The notes below the pieces were generated by a model. That model saw only the letters and a list, made by a program, of their open reading frames with translations. It ran no database searches and was not told the origin of the DNA. Position numbers and translations under genes: made by a program. A stretch of 64,000 nucleotides of DNA from a bacterium (GTDB lineage: Bacteria > UBA8248). Positions 40,120-42,036 of the stretch are shown here, piece by piece. The DNA is taken from assembly GCA_965200245.1 (NCBI GenBank), contig CBDATS010000004.1:1476791-1540790 (forward strand), in the 5' to 3' direction. The first letter of the stretch is position 1. Each line of letters opens with the position of its first letter.

Positions 40120-40350
40120 ATGAACCATGCCCAAACCATCGACCTCACGGGCGAAATCTGCCCCATGAACTGGGTGAGGACGAAGCTTGCGCTTGAGGCG
40201 ATGGCACCGGGCGATACCCTGGAAGTATGGATCGACGCAGGCGCCGCCGCCACCAGCGTCTCCAAAAGCGCCGCTGCCGAGGGACATGCCGTCAAGAGTG
40301 GTGTGCCGGACGGGCTAGGTCGCGTGCGGGTCGTTATCAGGAAGGAATGA
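40120..40350 (+). CDS. tusA: TusA/SirA-family sulfur-carrier protein
   Basis: IDLTGEICPMNWVRTKLALE (CPxx motif) and GDTLEV; GAGGAG RBS at 40108-40113. Confidence 0.88.
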   Translation: MNHAQTIDLTGEICPMNWVRTKLALEAMAPGDTLEVWIDAGAAATSVSKSAAAEGHAVKSGVPDGLGRVRVVIRKE

Positions 40351-40475
40351 ATCAATTCATCCCAGGCAAATACTTCTCTGCATATTTTTTCACTTGCCGA
40401 TTTTATTGCCGCTGTTGATCTGAAGCCGACGGTTTTCCGTCTTTCGGAGGAGTATGTATAGGATGGAAGCGAGCC

Positions 40476-40638
40476 GTGAAATGCAGGAAATGCGAGTGGG
40501 TGTTTGTGGAAATGGCGGAAGGGAGACTACCATCATAGGTCATCGGGGCTCGATAACGAATACATCGGGGATGCGCATCTCATCGAATGGGGATGCGAGG
40601 TGGAAGGGATACGAACACCCCATGTGAAATTTCGATAG
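40476..40638 (+). pseudogene. Possible remnant of a YgiT/MqsA-type zinc-finger antitoxin
   Basis: GTG-KCRKCE..MAEG, then after a frameshift DYHHRSSGLDNEYI..., resembling CxxC + YHYxESGLDNVYL. An alternative 57-aa ORF (40454-40627) with a GGAGG RBS overlaps it. Confidence 0.35.
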
Positions 40639-40843
40639 TTTCAACCAAGTACGCAAACAGTAAACAGAGAAAACAGCATATCGGCAATCAAACTCGTTTC
40701 CACTGCCGGGGAGGATTTCGATGTCGAATACGTCGCGCAGGCGTATCGAACCGTTTGTGCAAAATCACCCACCGGAAATACGAGATGCGCCAACGAACCC
40801 ATTTCTGCCAAATAGCGTTCAAATGACTTGAAGACTCGACCGG

Positions 40844-40895
40844 AAATTTTGGGAATTATCTACTTGAATCCGCAAGTCTGAATATCCTGATTTTG
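40844..40895 (+). repeat. Left inverted repeat
   Basis: AAATTTTGGGAATTATCTACTTGAATCCGCAAGTCTGAATATCCTGATTTTG. Confidence 0.75.
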
Positions 40896-40915
40896 CGTTT
40901 TCCGGGTGTATCGTT

Positions 40916-41287
40916 TCAGGTCACAGGCGGAATTGCTGTCAGAACCGGTGCATGCGCCGCCTTCTTCCATTCAGCCCATACACCGGAACTGACAGGAACC
41001 CGAAAGTGGGCACTTTCGCATATAAATTCCCTTATCGATACCAAATCGTAATCTGCACCGCTGGCGCCTTCCAACTGTTCCTCGGTGAGCCGGGTCGCAG
41101 GCGGGAGGACGAGATAGCTGTTCTCGGCGTCGTCTTCCATCACATGCAGGTTGAAATTCTCCGGCATCGTTATCCCGAACTCCTCGAATCCCACGGCCTT
41201 CGGTTCGGAGATAAGACGGGCACGGAACTCCTCACTGTCGCTTGCCTTCTCGATCAGGTGCTCGCGCATCTCGGAAATAGATTTCAT
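40916..41287 (-). CDS. NHLP (nitrile-hydratase-like leader) RiPP precursor peptide
   Basis: LIEKASDSEEFRARLISEPK...FGITMP...LHVMED...YLVLPP...LTEEQLEGASGA is the NHLP leader with a double-Gly-type cleavage site; TAAGGAG RBS. Confidence 0.88.
   Translation of the reverse strand: MKSISEMREHLIEKASDSEEFRARLISEPKAVGFEEFGITMPENFNLHVMEDDAENSYLVLPPATRLTEEQLEGASGADYDLVSIREFICESAHFRVPVSSGVWAEWKKAAHAPVLTAIPPVT
41001..41018. terminator. Hairpin within or just after the NHLP core region
   Basis: CGAAAGTG-GG-CACTTTCG perfect inverted repeat, about 13 nt downstream of an out-of-frame TAA. Confidence 0.4.
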
Positions 41288-41469
41288 TCCGGTCTCCTTA
41301 TCCTGAGGAAATGAGTATGGGTGGACACCCCCGATGCTTTCGTTTTTTTTGCATCGTCATCCTGAACAGGATATGGGATATTCCGACGGGAAAGCAAGAA
41401 ATTTTTGACGTTTTCTCGTGAGGAACAGGCTTCCTCCTGGGAAAACGGCGGCCGGAGGACACGTTTTCC

Positions 41470-41520
41470 CAAATTCAGGGAGCCAGACTTGTGGATTTAC
41501 GTATGTAATTCCCGAAATTC
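41470..41520 (-). repeat. Right inverted repeat
   Basis: Reverse complement reads GAATTTCGGGAATTACATACGTAAATCCACAAGTCTGGCTCCCTGAATTTG; 30 of the first 37 nt match the left repeat. Confidence 0.75.
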
Positions 41521-41556
41521 ATGAGTTGAAAATCTGTTGCGATTCAAGAAGCTTCC

Positions 41557-42036
41557 TCATGGCAAGGGTTCGTCGTTGAGCCAGCGTGCGAGGGCTTTTT
41601 CGGGGTCTGCGATCTCGTTGAGCGAAGTGTAGAAGTAGTTCTCCCAGCCGACCTCGGGCAGGCCGGTGAAGATCATAAGATTCAGCGGATAGTGATCGCA
41701 ATCGGTCGAGCGCCTGAAATCGTCTCGAAACAAGAAGACGGGCTTTCCCCAGGCGATGGCCATGCCAAGTTCGACCATCACGCCCTCATCGGGCGGGCAG
41801 CCGTTCACCACGCCGAAAAAGCCCGCCGCATCGCGCACGTCGCGCATATCGTTCTGGCCGACGCGGTACGCCCAGCCGGGCTGCGCGAGTTCAGATGGCT
41901 GGTTGTTGCGCGTGAACGGTTCCCACACCTCGGCGCCCATGGCCTCAAGCGCCACCACGAGATCGGGCAGCGGCCCCTCGCGTTGTTGTAAGGAAAAACC
42001 GTAAGAACTCGCCAGGTACAGGGTCTTTTTTTCCAT
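41557..42036 (-). CDS. Nucleoside 2-deoxyribosyltransferase-family protein
   Basis: LYLAS, VWEPF, D..DV, PDEGVMVELGMAIAWGKP and NLMI motifs. Confidence 0.88.
   Translation of the reverse strand: MEKKTLYLASSYGFSLQQREGPLPDLVVALEAMGAEVWEPFTRNNQPSELAQPGWAYRVGQNDMRDVRDAAGFFGVVNGCPPDEGVMVELGMAIAWGKPVFLFRDDFRRSTDCDHYPLNLMIFTGLPEVGWENYFYTSLNEIADPEKALARWLNDEPLP

Follow-up and report, generated by a model that had tools for sequence, protein, structure and literature searches.

A RiPP precursor gene inside what is very probably a mobile insertion cassette, multiplied in one bacterial lineage

The window analyzed here is a stretch of 64,000 nucleotides (C4:1476791-1540790) of the bacterial genome G000, a 3.68-Mb assembly in 15 contigs, and coordinates without a contig name are positions in this window. 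In the spacer between a tusA-like gene and a nucleoside 2-deoxyribosyltransferase gene, positions 40851 to 41513 form an element of 663 bp. The only open reading frame (ORF) with a family match inside it encodes an NHLP-leader precursor of a peptide that is synthesized on the ribosome and modified post-translationally (RiPP), and a transposase gene is absent from it. The element is very probably a mobile insertion cassette (MIC), in other words a DNA transposon of the non-autonomous kind whose cargo is a RiPP precursor. It was inserted into the tusA-like/deoxyribosyltransferase spacer with duplication of an 8-bp A/T-rich target. An earlier note, made from the letters of the window, had proposed a non-autonomous mobile unit with a single NHLP-leader gene as cargo. 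Both points agree with the present results: the gene scores 62.1 bits against the TIGR03793 model (cut-off 50.9, residues 5-77), a nested hairpin being present besides, and the unit has many copies, 11 pairs of ends around NHLP genes, empty sites in relatives and insertion sequences (IS) with matching ends.

The limits of the element, 40851 (GGGAATTATC...) and 41513 (...GTAATTCCC), were fixed by comparison with other copies. It is bounded by terminal inverted repeats of 30 nt (GGGAATTA...CAAGTCTG) which are alike at 25 of 30 positions. The repeat on the 3' side of the gene (GGGAATTATCTACTTGAATCCGCAAGTCTG) occupies 40851 to 40880 on the plus strand, and the likeness between copies starts exactly at its first base; the repeat on the 5' side occupies 41484 to 41513 on the minus strand and reads GGGAATTACATACGTAAATCCACAAGTCTG inward. 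A repeat search returned arms of 36 nt, 83% complementary, at 40845-40880 and 41484-41519. The longer arms first described, 40844-40895 and 41470-41520, are a real inverted repeat and lie close to these limits, but their outermost ~7 nt belong to the target duplication, because the A/T-rich duplication sequence by chance prolongs the symmetry of the ends. The duplication directly abuts the ends. Its right copy, GAAATTCA, lies at 41514 to 41521 and its left copy, GAAATTTT, at 40843 to 40850, with two changes from the target, so that the two are alike at 6 of 8 positions. The pentamer TTGAA (40828-40832 and 41526-41530), suggested in the earlier note as a possible direct repeat, had to be given up: the true duplication has 8 bp, abuts the ends and corresponds to a single target in congeners.

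Eleven congener loci were examined for the window site and the left anchor was present in five of them. G020 and G021 carry an uninterrupted single target, CGGAAATTCATG, and G005 does likewise with changes, in the spacer context ...CCGACCGGAAATTCATG...; G002 and G016 have a different 1.35 kb at this place. The empty tusA-deoxyribosyltransferase site that had been envisaged from the sequence alone is thus found in three genomes. A second element, C4:1426664-1427368, is absent in G022, G006, G010 and G008 (four of five loci, the fifth being without anchors), where a single GAAAAGTTC stands in the place of the AAAAATTC found on both sides in G000. A third, C8:198493-199450, whose ends are perfect, is absent in G018 and G011 (two of five loci). 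Precise empty sites were therefore found for all three elements tested. In G000, the 8-bp flanks of 11 elements match at 7, 6, 2, 8, 7, 7, 8, 6, 8, 4 and 4 of 8 positions. The mean of 6.09 compares with 2.96 for left and right flanks taken from different elements, and none of 100,000 permutations reached the observed sum. Furthermore, there are three pairs of elements whose members show 0-3 differences from each other and have flanks without relationship, the identity stopping exactly at GGGAATT.../...AATTCCC.

These elements belong to a large family. BLAST of the cassette against its own genome revealed some two dozen related places, and 36 NHLP ORFs could be read from the 38 tblastn matches of the leader. 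With a profile built from the repeat, 35 sites were found in G000 at E<1e-5, and with the reversed control pattern none, so the repeat occurs far beyond chance. As the earlier note had asked whether other copies of the repeat exist in pairs around NHLP genes with different cores, the arrangement of these sites was of interest: 22 of the 35 combine into 11 convergent pairs, which measure 599-1005 bp from end to end and each surround an NHLP gene, one element holding two such genes and the remaining elements one each. Twelve of the 13 single ends lie within 900 bp of an NHLP gene. Among the NHLP genes outside pairs, 10 have an upstream repeat only, three a downstream repeat only and 11 none; some of the loci counted may be one place assembled twice, as C2:1-6862 overlaps C15:1-4816. 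Every copy becomes abruptly like the others at GGGAATTA..., and beyond this point the flanking DNA shows no relationship.

The repeats could instead be operators of the NHLP family, the copies having arisen by ordinary gene duplication without transposition. The ten genes with an upstream repeat only, placed ~180-420 nt before the start codon, are what such a role would give, and the repeat at 40851-40880 contains a small palindrome (ACTTG-N6-CAAGT). This idea leaves unexplained the 8-bp duplications, the empty sites at three of three tested places, the sharp loss of likeness at the outer base, the match with IS1595 termini and the occurrence of the same ends round unrelated cargo, including in another phylum. 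As a sole explanation it is contradicted and we consider it very improbable; a second, regulatory use of the ends is possible. The invertible module offered in the earlier note as the other choice fares no better. In such a switch, a site-specific recombinase would flip the segment and set the precursor on or off, and a promoter-plus-gene segment bounded by inverted repeats has the appropriate layout. However, no recombinase ORF is found inside or beside the element, and the target duplications and empty sites indicate insertion. Flipping would not uncouple the gene from its promoter either, since the upstream module lies inside the repeats. DNA contigs of two studies show one orientation at both junctions, where a rare or minor form could escape contigs. 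We give a switch hardly any credit.

The number of copies distinguishes G000 from its relatives. A 28-mer of the end (up to 3 mismatches) has 29 matches in G000 and, among 40 relatives, one in G006, two in G022 and none in the others; the reversed 28-mer, used as control, has no match anywhere. With a 21-mer of the end, 39 matches were obtained in G000 against 0-5 in 41 genomes of the family, and the NHLP leader has 39 matches in G000 against 2-9 in 22 congeners. The cassette family has multiplied in the G000 lineage only. Two end-like matches of G020 were rejected, as they form one large inverted duplication and not an element. The spread might be attributed to homologous recombination or gene conversion among a few old insertions in place of repeated transposition. 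Mosaic elements speak for exchange between copies: the 1-kb elements share the 3' module described below at 91-92% but have a leader only ~38% identical in protein, one element holds two NHLP genes, and some duplicates include flanks (C4:114526-115390 = C15:389344-390215). But recombination cannot produce new insertions at 11 unrelated places, each with an 8-bp duplication of its own, nor can it account for the increase from 0-2 ends to 29 in this one lineage. It probably acts additionally, by reshuffling modules, and is an improbable account of the spread itself.

The same ends also enclose other cargo in relatives. An element of 729 bp in G022 (L025:3001-3729) has two small ORFs in an A/T-rich insert and a 7/8 duplication, and one of 900 bp in G006 (L014:2438-3338) has a 196-aa ORF. 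The 1.96-kb element of G011 (L031:1006-2962) carries a 329-aa lipoprotein-like ORF and a 135-aa secreted-looking ORF, that of G012 (1.09 kb, L032:1020-2109) a 155-aa Cys-rich membrane-anchored ORF, and G014 holds a 351-bp element without cargo, i.e. a miniature inverted-repeat transposable element (MITE). Duplications of 8/8, 7/8 and 6/8 were read round elements with these ends in other genomes. In a scan of the genomes of 185,579 species, the end appeared in two other organisms only. One of these, an Omnitrophota contig, looks like coding sequence and was taken as chance, as was the single end match of a metagenome contig scan, which falls inside a coding frame; BLAST of the end against plasmids gave nothing significant. 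The other organism is a gammaproteobacterial metagenome-assembled genome (MAG), G058 (Candidatus Oxydemutatoraceae), with eight ends. Its 1,256-bp element (L061:101-1356) has a perfect 8-bp duplication, AAAGATAA, and as sole ORF a 404-aa TnpB with Cas12f1-like TNB, OrfB_IS605 and HTH_OrfB_IS605 domains; a shortened copy (L060:101-755) and a 262-bp MITE (L028:2765-3026) are present as well. A tblastn search of G000 with this TnpB found nothing, and Pfam shows only a broken remnant there. In eukaryotes, Fanzors are TnpB relatives that were captured by DDE-type vehicles. Judged by its ends and duplication, the G058 element looks like a comparable capture of TnpB by a DDE-type vehicle. This reading was adopted because, according to PMC3627910, neither inverted ends nor duplications are present in prokaryotic TnpB-only elements.

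As the enzyme supplied in trans, an IS1595-family DDE transposase is the most likely candidate, an attribution that we regard as reasonably probable from terminal sequence likeness. At C14:1779-2774, G000 has a 331-aa, apparently intact ORF with a Zn_ribbon_IS1595 and a full DDE_Tnp_IS1595 domain. In this copy GGGAATTATAC (extended, GGGAATTATACGG) is found 76 nt before the ATG and ...AAATTCCC (extended, ...GAAAATTCCC) 33 nt after the stop codon. Of the 23 genomes of the genus, 17 have IS1595-family genes; in five of 16 fetched loci GGGAATTAT points inward at the expected left end, where the chance expectation for a 9-mer is ~0.03 per locus. The IS1595-family copies of G022, G008 and G016 begin with the 13-nt GGGAATTATATAC, which also begins the cassettes of G022 and of the MAG of the other phylum; aligned with these termini, the window cassette ends read GGGAATTATCTAC and GGGAATTACATAC. 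An IS with matching ends, which the earlier note had proposed as a test of mobility, is in this way represented by left termini that agree with the cassette termini over 9-13 bases. For a member of the family, ISApl4, A/T-rich 8-bp direct repeats and ends beginning with GGGG are described in PMC12561309. Other candidates were rejected. There is no ISL3 transposase in the genome and only weak fragments of IS66 and IS6. IS256-family copies are present, with ends (GAGTTACTGTCGG..., GGGGATGTCCC... and GGTGAAGTCC...) unlike those of the cassette, and they explain only the nested hairpin. A fuzzy search with the 30-mer (up to 8 mismatches) gave no pair enclosing a transposase.

Several observations weigh against a simple picture of transposition driven by this enzyme. 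Poor duplications (2, 4 and 4 of 8) occur in three of the 11 elements, and, given the 13 single ends, one-ended copies, deletions or recombination have also shaped the family. A transposase between complete 30-nt ends could be found neither in the assembly nor in the 41 genomes of the family, and two collection scans did not reveal one either. The link to IS1595 consists of 9-13 terminal bases at left ends only, with loose likeness beyond; right ends and long inverted repeats of the IS1595 copies were looked for and not found, which is why we infer this motor from the left termini. The C14 copy matches at 8 of 20 end positions, has no target duplication and lies on a contig of 10 kb whose bin has an estimated contamination of 8%. 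The stretch is contained in sponge-metagenome runs of three studies, and the run that contains it best may be the source sample. Four runs from two of these studies were compared, and their contigs showed no empty allele and no joint skipping the element; as these are assembled contigs, rare forms escape detection. Current activity is therefore without support. The right junction, from the upstream module into the flank, is bridged without differences in runs of two studies, and the left one by 40 nt in X3 and 30 nt in X1, with 31 nt as the criterion. The DNA contigs of these two studies show the one orientation mentioned above.

The cargo gene occupies 40916 to 41287 on the minus strand and encodes 123 aa. 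Its leader corresponds to residues 1-78 and ends with ...EGASGA (residues 73-78). After this motif, read-through into the 3' module yields a tail of 45 aa, against 5-15 aa in the sister copies, and in the alignment with the C4:1371916 copy ~33 nt are missing from the window ORF, the stop codon included. An alignment of five short elements gave a common order of parts: end, upstream module, leader, core and stop, 3' module, end. The upstream module ('A module', 41288 to 41483, minus strand) combines the ribosome-binding site (RBS; AAGGAGACC at 41291-41299) with ~190 nt of hairpin-rich DNA and presumably holds the promoter; in the five elements it measures ~190-240 nt and its RBS is conserved. 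The 3' module ('B module', 40881 to 41040, minus strand) is found in most complete elements. Expressed as mean pairwise nucleotide identity among the aligned short elements, conservation amounts to 0.90 for the upstream end, 0.76 for the A module, 0.84 for the leader, 0.34 for the core and stop, 0.56 for the B module (0.82 in the four copies remaining when the C15 copy is left out) and 0.84 for the downstream end. A scan of the cassette for promoters and terminators gave nothing exceeding shuffled sequences, and no sigma-70 or sigma-54 promoter could be placed by eye; Rfam recognized no family in the cassette, nor in a 958-bp sister element.

A variable core in a conserved frame is the recurrent feature of the family. 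Of the 36 ORFs, 23 retain a start codon and a G[GAS] site followed by 2-20 further residues, and 19 distinct tails occur among them. The sister cores are short and aromatic (YYDWDDAF, YWGDVPNHV, QYDPFGGRIP, APWYNDGWPE, GYLWPY and EWVWH), and the cassette-borne cores are unrelated to each other and rich in Tyr, Trp, Asp and Gly. The leaders are conserved and under purifying selection, with a median ratio of nonsynonymous to synonymous substitution rates (dN/dS) of 0.34 over 110 pairs. Contigs from RNA libraries match the window copy in pieces over 40513-41340, the ORF included, with 0 differences in all pieces except record 19/26, which has one. The start near 41340 is only a hint; 41341-41760 and 40300-40512 are not covered, contig gaps being no evidence of absence.

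The proteins needed for maturation would have to come from other loci. The earlier note had remarked that no maturase or exporter accompanies the gene, and this stands for the families searched, none of which maps inside the window; radical SAM and LanM were not searched for. Its suggestion to look for NHLP maturase clusters in the genome led to an exporter and candidate maturase genes. The NHLP-type exporter, at C8:219599-225625, comprises ABC1, ABC2 and HlyD-like genes side by side. NHLM_micro_ABC1 (TIGR03796) with a peptidase domain scores 902 bits (cut-off 853.3, C8:222519-224708), ABC2 (TIGR03797) reaches 684 bits, just under its cut-off of 709, and the HlyD-like gene matches in part only. 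A P450 gene at C2:3836-5128 (= C15:711-2000) stands between two NHLP genes, one of them with the core NLYY. This P450 is a weak match to the RiPP P450 model ApyO (46 bits), and at C2:3820 its 3' end borders directly on a cassette end.

A second candidate is a family of ~350-420-aa proteins, without a sequence match in Pfam or the PDB, which adjoins NHLP genes in congeners. In G000, this ~370-aa enzyme family has nine loci, with an NHLP gene within 3 kb at seven of them. Five are intact (C8:325365-326516, C5:366988-368013, C15:99066-100145, C2:5534-6745 and C2:7332-8597), two are broken (C4:1314974-1315996 and C8:216380-217420) and two are pieces at contig ends. A profile search of the family against PDB sequences and Pfam gave no match. 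The best AlphaFold model of one paralog reached a predicted local distance difference test (pLDDT) score of 77.8 and a predicted template modeling (pTM) score of 0.78. In structural comparison, the 37 PDB entries listed (ranks 1-49) are all aromatic or indole prenyltransferases, with E between 1e-6 and 3e-4 and template modeling (TM) scores of 0.39-0.55; PriB, IptA, DMATS, CymD, TleC, CloQ, NphB and AmbP1/3 stand at the top. As far as the predicted structure indicates, the family may have a fold like that of aromatic (ABBA) prenyltransferases and is a candidate peptide prenyltransferase. In a congener, G013, an NHLP cluster (L037, C4:3523500-3536500) contains a precursor together with an enzyme of the prenyltransferase fold, a YcaO of 923 aa that has a winged-helix domain, a fusion protein resembling fatty-acid desaturases, an ABC transporter and a 432-aa protein with an NHLP-leader-like N-terminus, and an IS4/IS5-type transposase adjoins it.

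Together, these elements suggest the following course. Two 30-nt inverted ends enclose the promoter/RBS module, the NHLP precursor gene and the 3' module. The cassette entered the tusA-like/deoxyribosyltransferase spacer by cut-or-copy-and-paste, with duplication of an 8-bp A/T-rich target, and a transposase supplied in trans would have brought this about. The spreading cassettes carried a conserved leader with unrelated short cores round the genome. The peptides might be modified by enzymes encoded elsewhere, the prenyltransferase-fold paralogs and the P450, and then be cleaved and exported by the ABC1/ABC2/HlyD system on C8. A mobile peptide library in this sense is plausible. More tentatively, and with less than even confidence, we propose that the IS-derived cassette is a RiPP diversification engine, a transposon-borne combinatorial peptide library in a sponge symbiont. 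Each hop would place a self-expressing precursor at a new site, the framed core would change by indels and recombination between copies, and ~20 Tyr/Trp-rich cores would go to a few promiscuous prenyltransferase-fold enzymes, the P450 and one NHLP exporter.

The engine has to be weighed against a cassette that is mobile but whose precursor is the hitch-hiker of a selfish burst, with decaying copies and no working library, a possibility to which we attach the same guarded weight. The window copy itself points in this direction. It has lost the stop and part of the core and is judged to be probably a decaying member because of its read-through tail and a dN/dS of 0.75-1.05 with its nearest copies. 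Truncation, a frameshift or the absence of a GG/GA site marks at least four other copies: C4:571461 and C8:199183 have no such site, C2:3564 and C15:2275 are truncated and C2:26427 is frameshifted, and C2:305136 and C4:2242 lack a start codon. The candidate maturase family is broken at two of nine loci, four other AlphaFold models of the enzyme paralog were poor (47-55), no YcaO was found in the G000 genome, and in other genomes a vehicle with the same ends bears unrelated cargo. The selection on the leaders and the 23 intact ORFs with cleavage motif and short tail speak against a mere passenger. Neutral decay alone does not predict a core identity of 0.34 between flanking values of 0.84 and 0.82, an intact NHLP exporter and five intact enzyme paralogs have been retained, and RNA libraries contain contigs identical to the window copy. 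These RNA contigs come from one study, carry no strand information and could contain DNA. For the library, leader selection and the RNA contigs thus count in favor, and the several copies that look decayed, that of the window among them, against.

The remaining features of the window copy and its relatives are as follows. The nested hairpin at 40933 to 40998 consists of back-to-back IS256-family IS ends. Its source in G000 is the family of C4:705182-706424, and it is missing from the C15:389741 copy. IS256-family relatives of the hairpin in G000 are C4:705182-706424, C5:732589-733832 and C4:590371-591545, and ~50 nt of it also occur at dispersed places in most of the congeners and, within the class, in one genome. 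The cassette is neighbored by bioD and the tusA-like gene on one side and by the nucleoside 2-deoxyribosyltransferase and a major facilitator superfamily transporter gene on the other. In the invaded spacer, the motif GCCAAATAGCGTGTCAAATAAC occurs 2-4 times (40790-40835 in the window; also in G020, G021, G005, G002 and G016), and its repeats look like a repeated binding site. The final 1,384 bp of the window and of the contig (62617-64000, C4:1539407-1540790) recur elsewhere in the genome, with a longest frame of 344 aa.

Two further modules were noticed among the sister loci. An end-adjacent module of another kind ('C type') is found upstream of five NHLP genes, at a distance of ~370-420 nt, and in one more place by itself (in G000, C5:265338, C5:328952, C5:368279, C15:69375, C15:101980 and C4:988948); a prenyltransferase-fold gene stands just outside or downstream in two cases, and the second end was not found at these units. 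Between the precursor and the 3' module, the cassettes of 958-1005 bp contain a GC-rich segment of ~230 nt (L045:2198-2429, i.e. G000 C8:198690-198921). It recurs at 75-84% identity, in 1-3 places each, in 19 of 22 congeners and has no Rfam match and no convincing ORF; a small RNA gene or a fragment of a gene may have been captured here.

These observations bear on the open question of how single genomes gain dozens of RiPP precursors that share a leader and differ in their cores. What spreads can be seen here, namely a bounded cassette with ends, duplications, empty sites and exactly one precursor with its expression signals. If the diversification engine is true, it would provide a concrete mechanism for the unexplained precursor expansions of prochlorosin-type systems. 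For genome mining, a rule may be drawn that orphan NHLP genes far from clusters may be cassette-borne substrates of enzymes encoded elsewhere, and attention is directed to an unannotated prenyltransferase-fold family as likely peptide-modifying enzyme. To the study of mobile DNA is added a family of cargo cassettes whose ends are common to different phyla, with TnpB as an unexpected cargo within an element having inverted ends and target duplications.

Among known systems, the IS1595 family (ISXO2-like DDE transposase with an N-terminal zinc ribbon) shares 8-bp A/T-rich duplications and GGG-starting ends with the cassette, and differs in that the cassette has no transposase and agrees only in the first 9-13 bases of its 30-nt ends. 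Siguier et al., in 2009, are said to have described IS1595-family members with passenger genes. MITEs are non-coding by definition and usually under ~500 bp. Like them, the element is small and non-autonomous, with inverted ends, target duplication and many copies from a burst, and its cargo-free relatives with the same ends (351 bp in G014, 262 bp in the gammaproteobacterial MAG) are true MITEs. Unlike them, it measures 663 bp and has a 123-codon ORF with its own RBS. Of the label 'MITE-like' used in the earlier note, the non-autonomous character and the inverted ends hold, but since the element carries an expressed-looking gene, MIC is the closer name.

Classical NHLP/proteusin systems have in common with G000 the TIGR03793 leader and, in the genome, the peptidase-domain exporter pair with an HlyD-like gene. 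The classical NHLP cluster of a congener has a YcaO, whereas G000 has none; here the cores are very short (~5-15 aa) and aromatic, and the adjacent enzymes belong to a prenyltransferase-like-fold family without annotation. The prochlorosin (Nif11-leader) families resemble the present one by their dispersed precursors, conserved leader, hypervariable cores and enzymes encoded elsewhere (PMC10783134). For the prochlorosins of marine picocyanobacteria, a preprint (bioRxiv 10.1101/2020.03.09.984088) proposes an association with TnpA_REP as the engine of expansion, and a post-submission note of its authors states that there is no strong evidence for causation. In that system, precursors are co-located with the gene of a single-strand transposase, whereas here the precursor lies inside a bounded element with duplications and empty sites, and the structure demonstrates the mobilization of single precursor genes. 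The chemistry differs as well, a Nif11 leader and lanthionine on one side, an NHLP leader and likely prenylation or P450 chemistry on the other.

The closest parallel is that with MICs, of which MIC231 of the Bacillus cereus group is an example. They are an established kind of element, with IS-type inverted ends, passenger genes and no transposase, exemplified in PMC4337579, PMC5444012 and PMC6199540 by the TALE (transcription activator-like effector)/mlt cassettes in Xanthomonas and the Aeromonas cassette with qnrS2. Searches of the open full-text literature yielded no MIC or MITE whose cargo is a RiPP precursor, subscription papers and ISfinder being outside the search. Like MICs, the element has IS-family inverted ends, a target duplication, one or more passenger genes and no internal transposase, and would be mobilized in trans. 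Unlike the known MICs, it has as passenger a RiPP precursor that brings along an expression module, and it has been amplified to about two dozen copies in one genome, with a hypervariable core in a conserved frame.

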